Made by a program: the position numbers and the translations under genes. A stretch of DNA of 64,000 nucleotides from positions 682,959 through 746,958 of the forward strand of contig CAVQCI010000003.1 of assembly GCA_963710985.1 (NCBI GenBank). Reading direction: 5' to 3'. Origin of the DNA: an uncultured Actinomycetes bacterium (GTDB taxonomy: Bacteria; Actinomycetota; UBA4738; HRBIN12). Under the pieces are notes generated by a model. The model worked only from the letters and a program-made list of their open reading frames with translations, was not told where the DNA came from and searched no databases. Shown here piece after piece: positions 33,726 to 46,640 of the stretch (position 1 is the first letter of the stretch; every line of letters starts with the position of its first letter).

Positions 33726-36215
33726 GTGAGCGCCGACGTGAATGCAGGCGGATCGACGACGGGGGACTTGCCCTCCCGCGCACAGGTCGTGGTCGTCGGC
33801 GGCGGCGTGATCGGCACCTCGATCGCCTACCACCTGACGCACCTGGGGTGGCGCGACGTCGTCCTGCTCGAACGCAAGCAACTCACCGCCGGGACCACCT
33901 GGCACGCGGCCGGCTTGATCACCTCCGCCGGCATGACGTCGGAGACGCTCCTGTGGATGTCGCGGTACACGCGCGACCTCCTGCCGACGCTCGAGGAGGA
34001 GACCGGGCAGGCGACCGGGTTCCGTCCGATCGGTCACCTGCACCTCGCGACGACCCCCGGACGCCTGGAGACGATCCGCCGTGAGTCGGCGTTCGTGCGC
34101 TCGCTCGGGGTCACCCACGAGGAGCTCTCCGCGAAGGAGTTCCAGGGCCTGTGGCCGCAGGCCTACGTGGACGACGTGCTCGCCGCCTTCTACGTGCCCG
34201 ACGAGGGCCGCGCGAACCCCGCCGACGTCACGATGGCCTACGCGAAGGGCGCGACGATGGCGGGCGCCACCGTGATCGAGGGCGTGACCGTCACCGGGTT
34301 CACGAAGCACGGGCACCGCGTCAGCGGCGTCGTCACCGACCGGGGGACGATCGAGACCGAGTCCGTCGTCAACGCCGCCGGGATGTGGGGCCGTCAGGTC
34401 GGCGCGCTCGCCAGCGTGACGGTGCCGCTGCAGGCCGCCGAGCACTACTACGTGATCACCGAGCCGCTCGAGTGGGCGCACCCGGACCTGCCGGTCGTGG
34501 AGGACCCCGACCGCTACGGCTACTACCGCGAGGAGGGCGGCGGGATCCTGGTGGGGCTGTTCGAGCCCGTCGCCGGCCCGTGGGGCCTCGACGGGATCCC
34601 GCAAGACCTGGGGTTCGCGATGCTCCCGCCCGACTACGACCGCGTCGGCCCGTTCCTCGAGCGCGCGATGGACCGGTTCCCGGCGCTGCACGAGGCCGGG
34701 ATCAAGACGTTCTTCTGCGGGCCCGAGAGCTTCACGCCCGACATCTCGCCGCAGCTCGGCGAGGCGCCCGAGGTCGAGGGGTTCTTCGTGGCCGCCGGTC
34801 TCAACTCGCTCGGGATCCTGCTCTCGGGCGGCGTCGGCAGCACGATCGCTTCCTGGATCGTCGACGGCGTGCCGCCCGTCGACGTCACGGGCCTGACGGT
34901 CGATCGCACGCAGCCGTTCGAGACGTCGCGGCGGTTCCGGGCCGAGCGCGCGGTGGAGCAGCTCGGCGCGCTGTTCGGCGACGCCGTCTGGCCGAACTGG
35001 CACCCGGCGACGGCGCGCGGCGTCCGCCGCAGCGTGATCCACGACCGGCTCGAGGCCGCCGGCGCGCAGTGGTCGGTGAGCAGCGGCTGGGAGTACCCGG
35101 ACTGGTTCGCGGAGCCGGGCGCCGGCCACGTCGAGCTCACGCCCGGCTGGGACCGCGACGAGTCGTTCGGCTGCCAGGCGGAGGAGCACCGCGCGGTCCG
35201 CGAGGCCGTCGGCGTGCTCGACATGTCGCTGATGGCGAAGTTCCTGGTGCAGGGTCCCGACGCCGAGACGCTGCTGAACCGGGTGAGCACGAGCGACCTG
35301 GCGGTGCCGGTGGGCACGATCGTCTACACGCAGTGGCTGCACGAGCGCGGCGGGATCGTCGCCGACCTCACGGTGACGCGCGTCGGCGAGGACGCCTTCC
35401 TGGTGGTCGCGACCGACACGATCCACCGGCGCCTGCCCGCGTGGCTCCGACGCCACGCCCGCGAGGACGAGCGCGTGTCGTGGACCGACGTTACGTCGGG
35501 CACGACGCTCCTCACCGTGCAGGGCCCGCGCTCGCGCGAGCTGCTCTCGCGCCTGACCGACGCCGACCTGTCCAACGACGCGTTCCCCTACATGACCGCG
35601 AGGCCGATCGATGTCGGCTACGCGCCGGTCCAGGCGCTCCGCGTCACCTACGTCGGCGAGCTCGGGTGGGAGCTCCACGTGCCCGCCGAGTTCGCGGTGG
35701 GTGTCTACGACGCGCTGTTCGAGGCGGGCGAGGACCTCGGGATCCGCAACGCGGGCCTGCTCGCGATGAACAGCCTGCGGATGGAGAAGGCCTACCGCGA
35801 CTGGGGCCTGGACCTCGACAACACCGACACCCCGCTCGACGTCGGCCTCGGGTTCTGCGTGTCATGGGACAAGCCCGGCGGGTTCGTCGGCCGCGACGCC
35901 CTGCTCGCCCAGCGCGTGGAGGGCACGCCCAAGCGCCGGCTCGTGCAGTTCCTCCTGACCGACCCGGAGCCGCTCCTCTACGGGAACGAGCCCTTGCTGC
36001 GCGACGGCGAGATCGTCGGCTACAACCGGATCGGGGCGTACGGCCATACGCTGGGCGGCGCCGTCGGCCTCGGGATGGTCGAGGACGAGGCGGGCATCCC
36101 GGCGGAGTCGATCGAAGGCGCGAAATGGGAGCTCGACGTCGCCGAGGTCGCCGTACCCGCGCGGGCCTCGCTCCGCCCGATGTACGACCCGGACCGGGAG
36201 CGGATCAAGGCGTAA
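33726..36215 (+). CDS. Dimethylglycine/sarcosine dehydrogenase-like FAD oxidoreductase fused to GcvT folate-binding domain
   Basis: GTG 33726 lies 6 nt after GAGAGGAG. Blocks: VVVVGGGVIGTSIAYHL, GTTWHAAGL. The C-terminal half is aminomethyltransferase-like (GVLDMSLMAKFLV, LRVTYVGELGWELHVP, LRMEKAY). Intact to 36215. Confidence 0.8.
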   Translation: MSADVNAGGSTTGDLPSRAQVVVVGGGVIGTSIAYHLTHLGWRDVVLLERKQLTAGTTWHAAGLITSAGMTSETLLWMSRYTRDLLPTLEEETGQATGFRPIGHLHLATTPGRLETIRRESAFVRSLGVTHEELSAKEFQGLWPQAYVDDVLAAFYVPDEGRANPADVTMAYAKGATMAGATVIEGVTVTGFTKHGHRVSGVVTDRGTIETESVVNAAGMWGRQVGALASVTVPLQAAEHYYVITEPLEWAHPDLPVVEDPDRYGYYREEGGGILVGLFEPVAGPWGLDGIPQDLGFAMLPPDYDRVGPFLERAMDRFPALHEAGIKTFFCGPESFTPDISPQLGEAPEVEGFFVAAGLNSLGILLSGGVGSTIASWIVDGVPPVDVTGLTVDRTQPFETSRRFRAERAVEQLGALFGDAVWPNWHPATARGVRRSVIHDRLEAAGAQWSVSSGWEYPDWFAEPGAGHVELTPGWDRDESFGCQAEEHRAVREAVGVLDMSLMAKFLVQGPDAETLLNRVSTSDLAVPVGTIVYTQWLHERGGIVADLTVTRVGEDAFLVVATDTIHRRLPAWLRRHAREDERVSWTDVTSGTTLLTVQGPRSRELLSRLTDADLSNDAFPYMTARPIDVGYAPVQALRVTYVGELGWELHVPAEFAVGVYDALFEAGEDLGIRNAGLLAMNSLRMEKAYRDWGLDLDNTDTPLDVGLGFCVSWDKPGGFVGRDALLAQRVEGTPKRRLVQFLLTDPEPLLYGNEPLLRDGEIVGYNRIGAYGHTLGGAVGLGMVEDEAGIPAESIEGAKWELDVAEVAVPARASLRPMYDPDRERIKA

Positions 36216-38427: not shown

Positions 38428-38853
38428 ATGGGCGAGCCGGGCTCCGGGTTCGCGTTCCTCGAGCACACCGCGGACGTCGGGATCCGCGCGTGGGGGCCGT
38501 CGGTCCGCGCGGCGTTCGAGCAGGCGGGGCGCGGCCTCGCGACGCTTATCGGGGCGACGGCGCCGCCTCCTGGCCGTGCCGTCCCGATCCACGTCGAGGC
38601 GCACGACCGCGAAGCGCTGCTCGTGAGGTTCCTCGACGAGCTGGTCTTCGTGTTCGAGACGCACGACGGCGAAGGGCTCGCGTCGCTCGAGGTCCCACGC
38701 CTGTCCGCGACGTCGTGCGACGCCGTCGTCCGGCTCGCGCCGATGGCCGTCCCCTTGGAGGGCTTGCTCGTGAAGGCCGCCACCTATCACCAGCTCTCGA
38801 TCGCCGAGGGGCCCGACGGTACGGCCGAGGCGCAGATCTACCTGGATGTGTGA
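38428..38853 (+). CDS. Archease
   Basis: ATG 38428. FAFLEHTADVGIRAWG...VKAATYHQLSI blocks are typical of archease. The stop lies 3 nt before the rtcB ATG. Confidence 0.85.
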   Translation: MGEPGSGFAFLEHTADVGIRAWGPSVRAAFEQAGRGLATLIGATAPPPGRAVPIHVEAHDREALLVRFLDELVFVFETHDGEGLASLEVPRLSATSCDAVVRLAPMAVPLEGLLVKAATYHQLSIAEGPDGTAEAQIYLDV

Positions 38854-38856
38854 GCG

Positions 38857-40303
38857 ATGCAGCCCGAGCGGATCGATGCGTTCTCGTGGCGGGTGCCGGT
38901 CGGCACGGTCGAGGGGATGCGCGTGCCCGGCGTCGTGTTCGGCACCGAGGCGCTGATCGCGCGCGCGGTCGACGACCGGGCGATCCTGCAGGTCGCGAAC
39001 GTCGCGACGCTCCCGGGGATCGTCGGGGCCTCGTTCGCGATGCCCGACATCCACTGGGGCTACGGCTTCCCGATCGGCGGCGTCGCCGCGACCGACCCGG
39101 ACGCCGACGGCGTGATCTCGCCCGGCGGCGTCGGCTTCGACATCGCCTGCGGCGTGCGGCTCGTGCGGACGGACCTGACGTGGGAGTCCGAGGTGCGGCC
39201 ACGGATCCGCGAGCTGGTGGCGACGCTCGCGAGCGCGACGCCCCGCGGGACGGGCGCCGGCGGTCGGCTGCGGCTCAGCCGCGCCGACGTGCTCGACGTC
39301 CTTCGCGACGGCGTCGGGTTCCTGCTCGGCCGCGGGATCGGCTGCCCGCGCGACGCGGAGCTCTGCGAGGACGGCGGCGCGCTCGCCGGCGCCGCGCCCG
39401 AGGTGGTCAGCGAGCGAGCTCTCACGCGCGGCGCCGGCCAGCTGGGGTCGCTCGGCGCCGGGAACCACTTCCTCGAGGTCCAGGTGGTCGACGAGATCCT
39501 CGAGCCGGTCGCCGCGAACGCGATGGGGCTGTTCGCGGGGCAGGTGTGCGTGATGATCCACTGCGGCTCGCGCGGTCTCGGGCACCAGGTGTGCACCGAT
39601 CACGTCGCGGCGATGGACCGGCTGATGCGACCCCTCGGGATCGAGGTGCCGGACCGCCAGCTCGCGTGCGCTGCCGCTCGCGCACGAGGCCGCGCGCCGC
39701 TACGTCGGCGCGATGAACGCGGCCGCGAACTTCGCGCGCGCGAACCGCCACCTCCTGGCCGACGGCGTTCGGATCTCGTTCGAGTCCGTCTTCGAACGCT
39801 CCGCACGGGACCTCGGGATCGGGCTCGTGTACGACGTCGCGCACAACCTCGCGAAGCTCGAGGAGCACGAAGTGGACGGCCGCCGGCGCACGCTGTGCGT
39901 GCACCGCAAGGGCGCGACACGGGCGTTCGGACCGGGCCATCCATCACTGCCCGACGCGTACCGAACGATCGGCCAGCCGGTGCTGATCCCCGGCAGCATG
40001 GGCACGGCGTCGTTCGTGCTGGTGGGCACCGCCCAGGCCGAGCGCCGGGCGTTCGGCTCCACCTGTCACGGGGCGGGACGGCTGCTCTCACGGACAAAGG
40101 CCCGCAAGCAGATCGGCGGTCACGAGCTCGCGCGGCAGCTCGAGGAGCAGGGCATCGTGCTCGCGCCGGGCTCCCCGAAGCTCCTCGCCGAGGAGGCGCC
40201 GTTCGCCTACAAGGACGTCGACGAGGTCGTGCGCGCGTGCGAAGGCGCCGGCTTGTCGCGGGCGGTCGCGCGCCTGCGCCCGGTCGGGGTGGTCAAGGGC
40301 TGA
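38857..40303 (+). pseudogene. rtcB: RNA 3'-phosphate/5'-OH ligase RtcB, one frame break
   Basis: [36 protein letters not shown] and [10 protein letters not shown] are in ORF 38857..41088. [26 protein letters not shown]...HNLAK...HRKGATRA...IPGSMGT...STCHGAGR is in ORF 39713..40303. There is a 1-nt excess at ~39672. Confidence 0.85.
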
Positions 40304-40304
40304 G

Positions 40305-40997
40305 TCAGACGGTGGTGAGCCGTCCCTCGTCGCGGGCACGGGCCAGCCGTGCCGCGCGCCGAGCCAGACGGAGCGGCTCGGGCGTGCGGGCGCGTTCCAC
40401 AGTCATGCGGACGACGGTGAGCGCGGCGTCGAGGTCCGTCCGCCATGCCGGGTGCACCACCACCGGGCGGATGCCCGTCTGCGTGCGGAGCCACGCGGCG
40501 ACGATCCCGCCGTCCAGGACCAACGGCGATGTCGCCCAGCGTTCCGGTGCGGGTTCCGGCCCGCGCGCGAGCAGCGGCCGGTCGGTGACCCCGACGGTCG
40601 GCACGTCGAGGACGGCGCCGAGGTGCAGCGCGAGGCCGGCCCCGCGGGGATGGTCGCGCCCGGTCGCGTTCACGAGGAGCACGTCGGGGCGCAGCCCGAG
40701 CGCCAGCACGGCTGCCTCGAGGAGGGGCCCTTCCCGCAGGGCGAGCGCCCCCGCCACGTACCCGGCGCCGGTCTCGCCGCGCACCACGGCTTCGGCGGAC
40801 CCCACGACCGCCGCCGCCCAGGCAGGCTCGCCCGGTTCCTCACCGGCCGAGCCCGTCGGCGCCGTGAACCAGACCCCGCCGATCGCGAGCGTCCGGCGCG
40901 GCGGCCGCCACGGCGACGTGGACGACGCGGCGAGCGCGTCCTGGACGTCGCGAAGCTCCGGCGCCGTCCGGGGCCAGCCGGACGCCGACGCCGTCAC
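40305..40997 (-). CDS. nfi: Endonuclease V-like protein with apparently substituted catalytic residues
   Basis: GTG 40997 overlaps the upstream stop (GTGA). Blocks: [64 protein letters not shown]. These are collinear with EndoV as recalled from memory. Confidence 0.75.
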
Positions 40998-41797
40998 GGC
41001 CTGCCCGCGAGGGCGAAGGCGCCGTACCCGACGACGCGGTCGGCGTCTCCCGCGGTGTCGCCGGAAGTGCGGAGATCGAGCAGGGTGACGTCGAGGTCGC
41101 GTTGCCGCGCGAGCTCCACCGCGCCGCGGAGCGCGAACACGCCGCACGCGTCGTCGGTGCCGATCGCCCCGGGGTTCCTGGCGAGCACGGCGTCGGCCGT
41201 CCGGCGATCCTTCCGCCGGGCCGACTCCAGGGGCAGGTAGTGGCTGAGGTCGGTCGAGACCACCACGAGGTCGGCGGCGTCGCCGACGGCCGCGATCACG
41301 CCCGCGGCCTGCTCGGACGAGGACCAGCCGACCGCGACGGGTGCGATCCGGACGCCGGGTCCGAGCACGACCTGGAGCCACGGCAGCTGCACCTCGAGCG
41401 CGTGCTCGTCCAGGTGCGGTCCTTCGTCGATCGACGCTCCGGCATCCACGGCGACGACGCGCAGGTCCTCGTCGACCTCGACGTCACCGAGCGGGGTCCG
41501 CCACGCGCCCGCCCCGCTCACGGCGAGACCGTCGAGCGGTTCGAAATGCGACGGTCCGAACAGGGCGACGCTGCGGATCCGCTCCCACCAGGGGGTGAGG
41601 AGCCCGTACCCCGACGCCGCGACCGGTCCGGAGTAGCGGTAGCCGGCGTGCGGCACGATCAACGCGAACGGCGGGGCGTCGGACGGCGCCGCCGGCGCGC
41701 TCGCAGACAGCAGCGCTCGGACCTCTGCTTCCAGGTGCGCGGCGTCCTCGGGGTAGAAGGCCCCGCTCGCCGCGGGTCGGCGGATCAACGTCTTCAT
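40994..41797 (-). CDS. AmmeMemoRadiSam system protein B (Memo-like)
   Basis: ATG 41797 overlaps the radical-SAM stop (ATGA). Blocks: [48 protein letters not shown]. Confidence 0.8.
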
Positions 41798-42885
41798 CGC
41801 ACGCCTCCCGTCATCTGCACGGGCAGCCGCCGCGACCCCCACGCGCCCGGCTCGGGTTCGAACACGCCGGCGCACGGTGTCCCGCACGCGGCGCACCGGC
41901 CGTGGGCATCGAGTCCCCAGGCGGTCAGGTCGTAGCCGTCGCGTCCGATCACGGCGGTCTCGCACCCGTGGCACCAGGTCGTCTGCCCGGCCGGGTCGTC
42001 CACGTTGCCCGTGTACGCGTAGCGGATCCCGTTCGCGAGCGCGATGTCGCGCGCGCGATGCAACGTCGAGCGAGGGGTCGGCGGGGGGTCGCGCATCTTC
42101 CAGTCGGGATGGAACGCGGTGAAGTGCACAGGGACGTCCGGCCCCAGCCGCTCGACGATCCATCCGGTCATCCGGTCGGTCTCGTCCGCGTCGTCGTTCT
42201 GCCCGGGGATCAGCAGGTTGGTCAGCTCGACCCAGACGTCGGTCTCGCGCACGAGGTACTCGATCGTCTCGAGCACCGGGGCCAGCGAGGCCGCGCAGAC
42301 CGACCGGTAGAAGCCCTCGGTGAACGCCTTCAGGTCGACGTTCGCGGCGTCCATGTGCCGGTAGAACTCTTCACGGGGCCCGGTGCAGACGTACCCGGCG
42401 GTGACCGCCACCGCGCGGATCCCGCGCGCGCGGCACGCGTCGGCTACGTCGATCGCGTACTCGTGGAAGATCACCGGGTCGTTGTAGGTGAAGGCCACGC
42501 TGCGGCAACCGAGCCGCTCGGCGGCCGCGGCGAGCTCCTCGGGAGACGCCGCGTCGGCGAGGGTGTCCATCTCGCGCGACTTGGAGATGTCCCAGTTCTG
42601 ACAGAACCGGCACGCCAGGTTGCACCCGGCGGTCCCGAACGAGAGCACCGACGTGCCGGGCAGGAAGTGGCTGAGCGGCTTCTTCTCGATCGGGTCGACA
42701 CAGAAGCCGCTCGAGCGGCCGTAGCTCGTGAGGACGATCGCGTCGTCTTCACGAGCGCGGACGAAGCAGAGCCCGCGCTGGCCCTCGTGCAGACGGCACC
42801 CGCGGGGGCACAGGTCGCACTGGACACGGCCGTCGTCCAACGCGTGCCACCACCGGGTCGGATGCGAACTCCCCGCGACCGACAT
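41794..42885 (-). CDS. AmmeMemoRadiSam system radical SAM enzyme
   Basis: ATG 42885 (Met 18 of ORF 41794..42936). Blocks: VQCDLCPRGCRL, VDPIEKKPLSHFLPG, CNLACRFCQNWDIS (CxxxCxxC). C-terminal Cys cluster CHGC...CAACGTPC. Confidence 0.85.
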   Translation of the reverse strand: MSVAGSSHPTRWWHALDDGRVQCDLCPRGCRLHEGQRGLCFVRAREDDAIVLTSYGRSSGFCVDPIEKKPLSHFLPGTSVLSFGTAGCNLACRFCQNWDISKSREMDTLADAASPEELAAAAERLGCRSVAFTYNDPVIFHEYAIDVADACRARGIRAVAVTAGYVCTGPREEFYRHMDAANVDLKAFTEGFYRSVCAASLAPVLETIEYLVRETDVWVELTNLLIPGQNDDADETDRMTGWIVERLGPDVPVHFTAFHPDWKMRDPPPTPRSTLHRARDIALANGIRYAYTGNVDDPAGQTTWCHGCETAVIGRDGYDLTAWGLDAHGRCAACGTPCAGVFEPEPGAWGSRRLPVQMTGGVR

Positions 42886-42961
42886 CGCCGACCTCCAGGC
42901 ACCATCTTGCGCCTCCACTGGTGCTCCCGGCCACACCCACGGTCGTTCGCCGCCGTTCGCG

Positions 42962-44219: not shown

Positions 44220-46640
44220 ATGAAGGATCGGTACCAGGTCGTCGTGATCGGCGGTGGGATCGTGGGGTGCAGCGTCCTGTACCACCTCACGCTTCGCGGG
44301 CTATCCGACGTTGCGCTCCTGGAGCGCGAGGAGCTCACCGCCGGCTCCACGTGGCACGCGGCCGGTGGGTTCCACGCGATCAACGCGGACACGCGGATCG
44401 CCGCGCTGCAGAAGTACACGATCTCGATGTACGAGCAGGTCGAGCGCGAGAGCGGCCAGAGCACGGGGCTGCACATGTCGGGCGGCCTCGAGCTCGCGGG
44501 CACGCCCGAGCGGTGGCGGTTGCTGAAGTCCGAGCTCGCCTGGCATCACATGATGGGCACCGACGCCTACCTCCTCACACCCGAGGAGGCGACGGCGATG
44601 GTCCCGATCATCGACCCGACCGGCCTCGAGGGCGCGCTGTTCGATCCGCACGAGGGCAACCTCGACCCGAACGGCGCCACGCGCGCTTACGCGATCGCGG
44701 CGAAGCGTCGCGGCGCCGAGCTGATCGAGCACGACCGCGTGCTCGCGCTCGCCCCCACGGCGAGCGGGGAGTGGCGCATCGAGACCGAGCAGGGCGCGAT
44801 CGTCGCCGAGCACGTGGTGAACGCGGCGGGCCTGTGGGCGCGCAGGGTCGGCCGGATGGTCGGCGTCGACCATCCGCTCGTGCCGATCGTGCACCACTAC
44901 CTCGTGACCGACGACGTGCCCGAGGTCGCCGCGATCGAGGGCGACATGGCCGCCGTCACCGACCTCGAGGGCTTCACATACCTGCAGCGCGAGGGCAACG
45001 GCGTCCTCATGGGCGTCTACGAACGCAACCCGCGCCATTGGAGCGTCGAGGGCGCTCCCTGGGACTTCGGCCGCCAGCTGTTCCCCGAGGAGCTCGAGCG
45101 GATCATGCCCGAGCTCTCGATCGGCTTCGCGCGGTTCCCCGTCCTGCAGGACGTCGGGATCAAGCGCTGGGTGAACGGCGCGTTCACGTTCACGCCCGAC
45201 GGCAACCCGCTCGTCGGACCGGTCGCCGGGCTCCCCGGCTACTGGGCCGCGTGCGGGGTCATGGCCGGGTTCTCCCAGGGGGCCGGCATCGGGCTCGCCC
45301 TGGCGAACTGGATCGTCGACGGCGACCCGGGCGAGGACGTCTTCGGGATGGACGTCGCGCGGTTCGGCTCCTACGCCTCGAACGACCGCTACCTGCGCGC
45401 GACCACCGCGCAGTTCTACGCCCGCCGGTTCCTGATCGCCTACCCGAACGAGGAGTTGCCCGCCGGGCGTCCGCTCAAGACCACGCCCTGCTACGACGAC
45501 TTCCGCGCGGCGGGCGCCGTCTTCGGTGAGGTCTACGGCCTCGAGGTCCCGCTGTACTTCGCGCCCGAGGGGTTCGTGGAAACCCCGACGCTCGGCCGCT
45601 CCGACGCCGAGCCCATCGTTGCCGAGGAGGTCGAGGCGGTCCGCACCGCCGCGGGCGCGTACGAGATCGCGGCGTATGCGCGCTACGAGGTGACCGGTCC
45701 CGGCGCGGAGGCGTGGCTCGACCGGCTCGTGGCCTCGCGCCTGCCCTCGCCCGGACGCCTGCGTCTTGCCCCGATGCTGAACGACGCCGGACGCTTGATG
45801 GGCGACCTGTCCGTGACGCGCCTGGACGAGGACCGGTTCTGGCTGATCGGCTCGTACTACCTCCAGGACTGGCACGAGCGCTGGTTCCGCTCGCACCTGC
45901 CGCCGTCCGGGGTCGCGCTCCGCAACGTGACCGACCGGTGGGCCGGCTTCTCCGTATCCGGCCCCGCATCGCGCGCGATCCTCGAGGCCCTCGTCCACGA
46001 CGACGTGTCGAACGATTCCTTCCCGTTCATGGCGGTCCGTCAGATGGACGTCGGCTCCGCGCAGGCGATCGTCGGCCGGCTCTCGCTCACCGGGGAGCTC
46101 GGCTACGAGATCGTGGTGCCGGCGAACGTGGAGCGCACGCTGCTCCGCGAGCTCCGCGAGGCCGGCGCCGAGCACGGCCTGCGCGCGATCGGGGATCGCG
46201 CGATCGACAGCCTCCGCCTGGAGAAGGGCTACGGGATCTGGAGCGCCGAGTTCACCCAGGCGTACACGCCGGGGATGTCCGGGCTCGACCGCTGGGTCGC
46301 CTTCGACAAAGCCGGGTTCGTCGGTCGCGAGGCAGCGCTCCGCGAACGTGAGGAGGGGCCGGCGCGTTGGCTCGTGCTGCTCGAGGTCGATGCGGCCGAC
46401 GCCGACGCCTCAACCGACGAGCCGATCTGGCTCGAGGGCCGGCTGGTCGGGTTCGTGACATCGGGCGCCTACGGTCACCACGTCGCCAAGAGCCTGGCGC
46501 TCGCCTACGTCGACGCGAACCTCGTCGAGGCGGCGCCCGAGCTCGCCGTCTCGGTCGTCGGGGACCCGAGGCCGGCGCGGATCTTGCCCGAGGTGCCGTA
46601 CGACCCGAAGGGCACGAAGCTCCGCGACACCACGGCCTGA
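44220..46640 (+). CDS. Dimethylglycine/sarcosine dehydrogenase-like FAD oxidoreductase fused to GcvT domain (second paralog)
   Basis: Intact 806-aa ORF. Blocks: VVVIGGGIVGCSVLYHL, GSTWHAAGG. GcvT-like C-terminal half (GRLSLTGELGYEIVVP, LRLEKGY). Confidence 0.8.
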   Translation: MKDRYQVVVIGGGIVGCSVLYHLTLRGLSDVALLEREELTAGSTWHAAGGFHAINADTRIAALQKYTISMYEQVERESGQSTGLHMSGGLELAGTPERWRLLKSELAWHHMMGTDAYLLTPEEATAMVPIIDPTGLEGALFDPHEGNLDPNGATRAYAIAAKRRGAELIEHDRVLALAPTASGEWRIETEQGAIVAEHVVNAAGLWARRVGRMVGVDHPLVPIVHHYLVTDDVPEVAAIEGDMAAVTDLEGFTYLQREGNGVLMGVYERNPRHWSVEGAPWDFGRQLFPEELERIMPELSIGFARFPVLQDVGIKRWVNGAFTFTPDGNPLVGPVAGLPGYWAACGVMAGFSQGAGIGLALANWIVDGDPGEDVFGMDVARFGSYASNDRYLRATTAQFYARRFLIAYPNEELPAGRPLKTTPCYDDFRAAGAVFGEVYGLEVPLYFAPEGFVETPTLGRSDAEPIVAEEVEAVRTAAGAYEIAAYARYEVTGPGAEAWLDRLVASRLPSPGRLRLAPMLNDAGRLMGDLSVTRLDEDRFWLIGSYYLQDWHERWFRSHLPPSGVALRNVTDRWAGFSVSGPASRAILEALVHDDVSNDSFPFMAVRQMDVGSAQAIVGRLSLTGELGYEIVVPANVERTLLRELREAGAEHGLRAIGDRAIDSLRLEKGYGIWSAEFTQAYTPGMSGLDRWVAFDKAGFVGREAALREREEGPARWLVLLEVDAADADASTDEPIWLEGRLVGFVTSGAYGHHVAKSLALAYVDANLVEAAPELAVSVVGDPRPARILPEVPYDPKGTKLRDTTA

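Follow-up and report, generated by a model that had tools for sequence, protein, structure and literature searches.

A stretch of 64,000 nucleotides from an uncultured Actinomycetes bacterium (hereafter, the window) encodes a 230-residue protein with the fold of the DNA/RNA repair enzyme endonuclease V (EndoV) from which the canonical catalytic centre is absent. The protein belongs to a large, EndoV-derived and apparently undescribed subfamily, in which the substitutions at the catalytic positions are conserved across hundreds of species and are therefore not a matter of chance, sequencing error or gene decay. Judging from the residues that were lost and those that were kept, the protein is most probably a non-nucleolytic binder (a probability of roughly 0.6), which would bind a purine moiety without cleavage and act as a reader or sensor rather than as a nuclease. 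A preliminary description of this DNA, made by eye, had predicted a non-nucleolytic or chemically altered EndoV fold. This is a reasonable reading, as the metal-ligand set is gone and the pattern is family-wide.

The EndoV-like gene is the last of three tightly packed genes on the minus strand (42936-40305), where it follows the genes for a radical SAM enzyme and a Memo-family protein (Table 1). Its reading frame starts with a GTG codon at 40997 and ends with a stop codon at 40305-40307, and the GTG shares four bases (GTGA) with the stop of the Memo gene. Close homologues are 229-233 residues long, and an identical four-base overlap is found in a related locus, L085, which indicates that this GTG is the real start. 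A longer mechanical ORF that extends to 41381 was rejected, since its extra upstream part is an arginine-rich, out-of-frame overlap with Memo. The residues of the protein that matter for what follows are W43, Y80, E89, N110, R114-D115-H116, D139, H182 and W185. No second EndoV-family ORF is present within the 64-kb window.

Table 1. Features of the EndoV-like gene, its neighbors in the window and the MarR-fused relatives in other loci. Positions are those of the window except for the fusions, which are numbered within their own loci. Tma, Thermotoga maritima EndoV.
Feature	Position	Strand	Remarks
EndoV-like gene	40305..40997	-	230 aa; EndoV fold, canonical catalytic centre absent
Codon W43	40869..40871	-	Site of the beta-1 catalytic Asp (Tma D43); profile alignment
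Codon E89	40731..40733	-	Opposite Tma E89
Codon N110	40668..40670	-	Opposite Tma D110; profile alignment
R114-D115-H116	40650..40658	-	Subfamily-specific signature, beside the base pocket; canonical EndoV reads L/V-A-H
Codon D139	40581..40583	-	Opposite Tma K139
Motif H182-P-A-W185	40443..40454	-	W185 (40443-40445) at the Tma H214 site
Memo-family gene (AmmeMemoRadiSam system protein B)	40994..41794	-	PF01875, E=5e-43; TIGR04336, 232 bits vs cut-off 26
AmmeMemoRadiSam radical SAM enzyme gene	41794..42936	-	First of the three-gene operon; TIGR04337, 637 bits vs cut-off 220
Archease	38434-38853	+	Pfam; convergent with the EndoV-like gene
RtcB RNA ligase	38857-40303	+	Pfam; convergent with the EndoV-like gene; broken by a frameshift
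MarR-EndoV-like fusion, locus L086	6001-7434
MarR-EndoV-like fusion, locus L168	7001-8395		Mycolicibacterium agri
MarR-EndoV-like fusion, locus L170	7001-8251
MarR-EndoV-like fusion, locus L171	7001-8443

The GC content of the window is 68-76% (2-kb windows), and the genes further out include a chromate transporter, a polysaccharide deacetylase, a DUF1622 protein, a LigB-type dioxygenase and two dimethylglycine/sarcosine-dehydrogenase-like genes. The latter two are paralogs of about 800 residues with a DAO + FAO_M + GCV_T + GCV_T_C architecture, of the dimethylglycine/sarcosine dehydrogenase type. They lie on the plus strand at 33846-36212 and 44220-46637, about 8 kb apart, and flank the region. 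The reading frame of RtcB switches at about 39664-39671, where two segments that correspond to residues 1-269 and 272-481 of the L085 RtcB meet (86-88% identity by tblastn). RtcB is intact in the relatives L084 and L085 (480/481 aa). In the window, the frameshift stems from an indel in the assembly, or else the gene has recently become a pseudogene.

The Pfam profile PF04493 (Endonuclease_5) matches the 230-residue protein with 117.9 bits against a cut-off of 23.4 (E=6e-34), over residues 68-212 only, and phmmer aligns residues 72-214 to residues 72-215 of T. maritima EndoV (Tma EndoV). A subfamily profile built from 30 members and aligned to the EndoV chains in the PDB gives E-values of 2e-38 to 1e-20, with end-to-end alignment to the T. 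maritima and S. avermitilis proteins. The preliminary description had considered the ORF alignable to EndoV, and all four of the block alignments that it quoted were reproduced with phmmer and the PDB sequences. An AlphaFold2 model calculated on the subfamily alignment has a pLDDT of 90.8 and a pTM of 0.89, and Foldseek superimposes it on 3GOC, 2W35, 2W36, 3HD0 and 4XPU with TM scores of 0.74-0.84 over 216-227 columns. The model confirms that the full-length EndoV α/β (RNase H-like) fold is kept. In it, W43 is central in strand 39-45, N110 ends strand 106-110, and H182 is in strand 179-183, which stops two residues before W185.

The active site of Tma EndoV consists of D43, E89 (Q89 in the complex described) and D110, which bind Mg2+, and of K139 and H214, which lock the 5' phosphate at the nick (PMC4650699). 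By profile alignment, the window protein has W43, E89, N110, D139 and W185 at these positions. Four of the five catalytic-centre residues are thus lost, and only E89 is kept. The alignment is ungapped at every catalytic position, with identical residues on both sides. Three readings made earlier by eye hold in the profile alignment, namely Asn for D110, Trp for the His and the Glu of the REG motif as the sole catalytic residue retained. A fourth, that the β1 Asp had become Gly, was right about the loss of the Asp but not about its replacement, which is W43, the register having been off by two. The loss itself does not depend on this slip, since residues 34-52 of the window protein contain no Asp or Glu at all. 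The K139 to D139 change comes in addition to the substitutions listed in the preliminary description. The protein also misses the cut-offs of the NCBIfam nfi equivalogs (107.2 vs 230 for NF008629 and 91.7 vs 300 for NF041102). Failing both these cut-offs and the comparison of catalytic residues, it should not be filed as deoxyribonuclease V (Nfi, EC 3.1.21.7), the enzyme that makes a Mg2+-dependent nick at the second phosphodiester 3' of inosine.

A good part of the substrate-binding apparatus is retained. The hypoxanthine pocket of Tma EndoV is formed by G83, L85, G111, G113, G121 and L142 (PMC4650699), and five of the six (G83, L85, G113, G121 and L142) are kept in the window protein. The sixth, G111, is an Ala, as it is in 83-96% of the subfamily, and the bound base may therefore not be hypoxanthine. 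The wedge residue Tyr80 is also kept (95-100% of the subfamily), although its motif reads G-Y-V-A here vs P-Y-I-P in canonical EndoV, as are H116-P-R118, H125, the R-x-P-E-P-x-R-x-A motif and the N-terminal W-P...Q helix. Other residues are new: R114 and D115, which flank the pocket, T138, R140, W60, H182, W185-R186 and invariant arginines along the C-terminal helix. The subfamily can be recognized by the motifs G-R-D-H-P-R and H-P-(A/G)-W-R.

A protein search found 5,666 relatives, of which the best 120 (55-100% identity) were tabulated. Among these 120, position 43 is F, W, A or V, E89 is present in 109, and position 110 is mostly split between N (74) and D (44), while Y80, D115, H116, H182 and W185 are each found in all 120. 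HMMER was run exhaustively against 1.84 billion cluster representatives and yielded 4,727 EndoV-family clusters. The signature is present in all of the best 150 of these (50%-identity representatives), and none of the 150 has an Asp at position 43, which across the subfamily is F, W, Y or A. E89 is found in 66% of these 150 representatives, D115 in 96%, H116 in 97%, H182 in 90% and W185 in 88%. Positions 110 and 139, which are neighbors in the canonical active site, covary, with N+D in 52 and D+H in 37 of the best 120 relatives. In about 17% of the close members, neither position carries a carboxylate, a finding that speaks against an indispensable catalytic acid at this pair.

The subfamily is widespread. 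A scan of one genome per species with the peptides [ND]A[TS]GRDHPR and P.[VA]VH[PA][AG]WRT found both in at least 460 species genomes. The best 80 loci are mostly from Actinomycetota (Solirubrobacterales, Gaiellaceae, Thermoleophilia, Nocardioidaceae and Acidimicrobiia), with a few from Fidelibacterota, Acidobacteriota, Dormiibacterota and Bacillota. One homologue, L047, is from Actinopolymorpha alba DSM 45243. Thirty members share 38 invariant columns and a mean column identity of 56%, and with a dN/dS of 0.23-0.30 among five orthologues, the protein is under purifying selection. In public databases, these proteins go under the names endonuclease V or deoxyribonuclease V. Literature searches found no account of this subfamily, or of MarR-EndoV fusions, an absence that is no proof of novelty. 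Looking for a plasmid or mobile origin, PLSDB gave only matches to canonical EndoV, at less than 41% identity, and neither the EndoV-like nor the Memo protein has a PADLOC match that would link it to a defence system. One 403-residue protein (P0220) combines the N-terminal two-thirds of the EndoV-like domain with an RNase HII domain. The coordinates of the two matches overlap, and two adjacent genes have probably been joined here by a frameshift rather than truly fused.

A separate branch of the subfamily carries an N-terminal MarR winged-helix domain. Among the representatives, this architecture is seen in three independent clusters at 50% identity, and a dedicated search found about 95 MarR-EndoV-like clusters at 90% identity, most of them 440-480 residues long. 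Several recur in independent assemblies, and one is present in the cultured species Mycolicibacterium agri (CQY20_23655). Among 91 full-length fusion proteins (at least 400 residues), F43 is found in 95%, V/I89 in 96%, N110 in 98% and W185 in 99%, leaving no canonical catalytic residue at these four positions. At the same time, Y80 (100%), R114 (91%), D115 (98%), H116 (100%), T138 (100%) and H182 (100%) are kept. This retention of the residues that define the subfamily is most economically explained by a shared function in binding.

Four fusion loci were examined (Table 1), with identities to the query fusion, P0165, that range from 38 to 100%. All four lie beside genes for a two-subunit MaoC-type hydratase, an enoyl-CoA hydratase and an SDR or 3-hydroxyacyl-CoA dehydrogenase, with a family III CoA transferase at three of the four and an HMGL-like lyase at three of the four. 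The least similar of the four fusions and these genes are transcribed divergently, as is typical of regulators. The fusion probably regulates a CoA-thioester catabolic operon, with the EndoV-fold part as its putative sensor domain. A nuclease domain makes little sense in such loci, and the setting points to an effector- or DNA-binding domain.

These features suggest how the non-nucleolytic binder might work. The metal-ion centre has been dismantled, with an aromatic residue at the site of the β1 Asp, N110, D139 and a Trp in place of the phosphate-holding His. E89 is still there in the window protein but is dispensable across the subfamily. The aromatic residues W43, W60 and W185 may fill the former metal cavity, as judged spatially from the pairing of the strands. 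The wedge Tyr80, most of the purine pocket and H116-P-R118 would then serve to bind the purine moiety. The case for binding without cleavage is that the catalytic centre was lost while the wedge and most of the pocket persist. One candidate ligand, in view of the wedge Tyr, is a deaminated or flipped base in a DNA or RNA strand. Another, in view of the MarR-fused members found in CoA-thioester operons, is a small molecule that contains a purine. What counts against non-cleavage is that most stand-alone members, including the window protein, have E89 together with a carboxylate at 110 or 139, and that the strict conservation of D115, H116 and H182 would fit an enzyme too.

Comparison with known systems places the protein close to EndoV in fold and apart from it in its active site. 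Canonical EndoVs (TM1865 of T. maritima, 2W35; SAV1684 of S. avermitilis, 3GOC; and the E. coli enzyme, 4XPU) are 27-35% identical to the window protein, with TM scores of 0.74-0.84. They share with it Y80, five of the six pocket residues, H116-P-R118, H125 and the R-x-P-E-P-x-R-x-A motif. The window protein differs in being without the catalytic centre and in its new invariant residues R114, D115, T138, R140, H182, W185 and W60. Engineered active-site variants of EndoV can keep lesion binding without cleavage. Single substitutions at the same positions are seen in PDB entries, namely D43A, in the chain sequence of 2W36, and D110N (6OZF) and E89Q (6OZG), crystallised in complex with inosine-containing DNA. 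These three variants may be the closest functional analogues of the window protein, in which the residue of the engineered D110N variant, N110, is naturally present. However, the engineered variants are single mutations in an otherwise canonical protein, whereas in the window protein three to four ligands are replaced at once, bulky aromatics have been introduced, and the changes are evolutionarily fixed and elaborated.

More broadly, the protein could be likened to RNase H-like binders without catalysis. The PIWI domains of short prokaryotic Argonautes (SPARDA) and the RNase H-like domain of Prp8 have no catalytic tetrad and act by binding. Foldseek finds the related EndoV/PIWI RNase H-like fold in 9QCC and 3HVR, with a TM score of about 0.45 to the window protein. 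These inactive modules belong to a different family with different partners, however, and neither a guide nucleic acid nor an effector partner is evident for the EndoV-like protein. The MarR-fused branch can be compared to CouR and FerR, MarR-family regulators of CoA-thioester catabolic operons. It shares with such regulators a similar operon setting, the EndoV-like domain being fused C-terminally to the MarR domain, although no MarR domain is present in the window protein. Known MarR regulators sense their ligand within the MarR dimer itself.

The operon in the window also resembles the AmmeMemoRadiSam system (TIGR04335/TIGR04336/TIGR04337), of which it has the B and radical SAM components with the EndoV-like gene in the same operon. 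It differs in that the A component (AMMECR1) is not found in the operon and in that the system does not regularly include the EndoV-like gene. AMMECR1 (TIGR04335) is absent from the three operon genes and from the flanking genes scanned. Its motif, [LV]RGC[IVL]G, was also not found in any of the six frames of the window, which is a weak test.

Neighborhoods were compared for the best 80 genome loci of the subfamily, with up to 10 kb of flank each. Memo and the radical SAM enzyme stand beside the EndoV-like gene in just one of the 80, a close relative (L003). The full arrangement of the window, a chromate transporter, then the radical SAM-Memo-EndoV-like operon, then RtcB and archease, is also found in L085 (77% identity). 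L084 (83% identity) probably shares the operon, its upstream gene being cut by the end of the contig, and the operon, seen in no other locus, is absent from the equally close L082 (76% identity) and L002 (71%). The reverse comparison used the 80 closest radical SAM loci from metagenomes (65-79% identity), and none of these 80 has an EndoV-family ORF. Memo is adjacent in 44 of them, and 36 have no adjacent Memo. Since the pairing is rare in both search directions, the operon is a recent, clade-restricted arrangement, and neither family depends on the other. Co-transcription of the three genes, which overlap by four bases, is possible within the narrow clade. The placement beside the radical SAM/Memo genes is an accident confined to a single small lineage.

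No other gene emerges as a regular partner. All-against-all clustering of ORFs within 6 kb gave no recurrent neighbor in more than 19 of the 80 subfamily loci, and the large clusters consisted of antisense shadow ORFs only. Immediate neighbors from a codon-usage gene caller (n=126) formed no family larger than seven, an alpha/beta hydrolase by its sequence features. Clustering, itself confounded by shadow ORFs, revealed no third conserved gene at the radical SAM loci. RtcB/archease was considered as a conserved partner and rejected, being present at two of 81 loci. RtcB does adjoin radical SAM/Memo genes in three arrangements (L088, 3-89 and 137-2000; L156, 4226-7126; and the window, 38434-42936), accompanied by archease in L156 and in the window. 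This hints at a possible recurrent link between AmmeMemoRadiSam and RNA ligation or repair, which at two of the 80 radical SAM loci could be chance.

Other explanations have been considered for the EndoV-like protein. That it is a decaying pseudogene, has a misannotated start or is an alignment artefact of an ordinary nfi gene might be entertained from the frameshift in the neighboring RtcB, which shows that the locus or its assembly is not flawless, and from the endonuclease V and deoxyribonuclease V labels in the databases. The conservation data refute this: the ORF is intact, with 38 columns invariant among 30 members, dN/dS is about 0.25, and the substitutions recur in 460 species or more, to which the confident AlphaFold2 model and the ungapped alignment at the catalytic positions may be added. 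The preliminary description proposed an inosine/lesion-binding specificity module for the radical SAM/Memo pair, a reading that is not supported either. Such a dedicated module would bring substrate to the pair, perhaps in place of the missing AMMECR1. The three-gene operon with its four-base start/stop overlaps, which recurs in L085, the position of Memo and the radical SAM gene directly upstream in L003, and the lack of an AMMECR1-like motif in the window (by the weak motif test) are all in keeping with it. They are outweighed by the adjacency at only one of 80 subfamily loci, the lack of any EndoV-family ORF at the 80 closest radical SAM loci, the unlinked genes of L082 (76%) and L002 (71%), and the fact that most members are stand-alone genes in unrelated contexts. 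A specificity module for this pair is accordingly very doubtful.

A stronger competitor, though still an unlikely one, is that the protein is a remodelled active nuclease or hydrolase in which the catalytic residues have moved, for example to H182, D115-H116, E89 and the 110/139 pair. It might cut by His/Asp chemistry that needs no metal and yields 2',3'-cyclic phosphate and 5'-OH ends, the kind that RtcB takes as substrates. D115, H116 and H182 are indeed 90-100% conserved, the fused branch included, the covariation at 110/139 usually leaves a carboxylate, and the window gene lies tail-to-tail with archease-RtcB. However, E89 is missing in one third of the cluster representatives and in nearly all fusions, in some 17% of the close members neither 110 nor 139 is a carboxylate, and RtcB is adjacent at two of 81 loci. 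The same signature is also found in the MarR-fused domain inside metabolic operons. Moreover, the β1 Asp is essential across the RNase H-like nucleases as a class. A different and equally tentative idea is that the EndoV fold was repurposed as a ligand sensor, in which the conserved purine pocket, the R-D-H residues and H-P-A-W would bind a purine-containing small molecule (a CoA thioester, a nucleotide or an adenosine compound derived from SAM) and not a damaged base within a polymer. It would be the effector domain of the MarR fusions, and in the clade of the window it might serve the radical SAM enzyme by binding SAM, 5'-deoxyadenosine or a nucleotide-like substrate of the pathway.

If the proteins are indeed non-cleaving, as in the preferred reading of a purine binder, the capacity for deamination repair has been over-predicted for hundreds of mostly soil-dwelling Actinomycetota. 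A non-cleaving protein with the wedge and pocket in place would also lend itself, as it stands, to the affinity capture of inosine and other modified purines, a purpose for which devices such as Ca2+ substitution or point mutants are now needed. The finding would matter more if the ligand-sensor reading is true. The MarR fusions would be the first case, within the literature searched, of an EndoV fold as the sensory part of a transcription factor, and the cultured M. agri would offer a tractable entry to the ligand of the subfamily.
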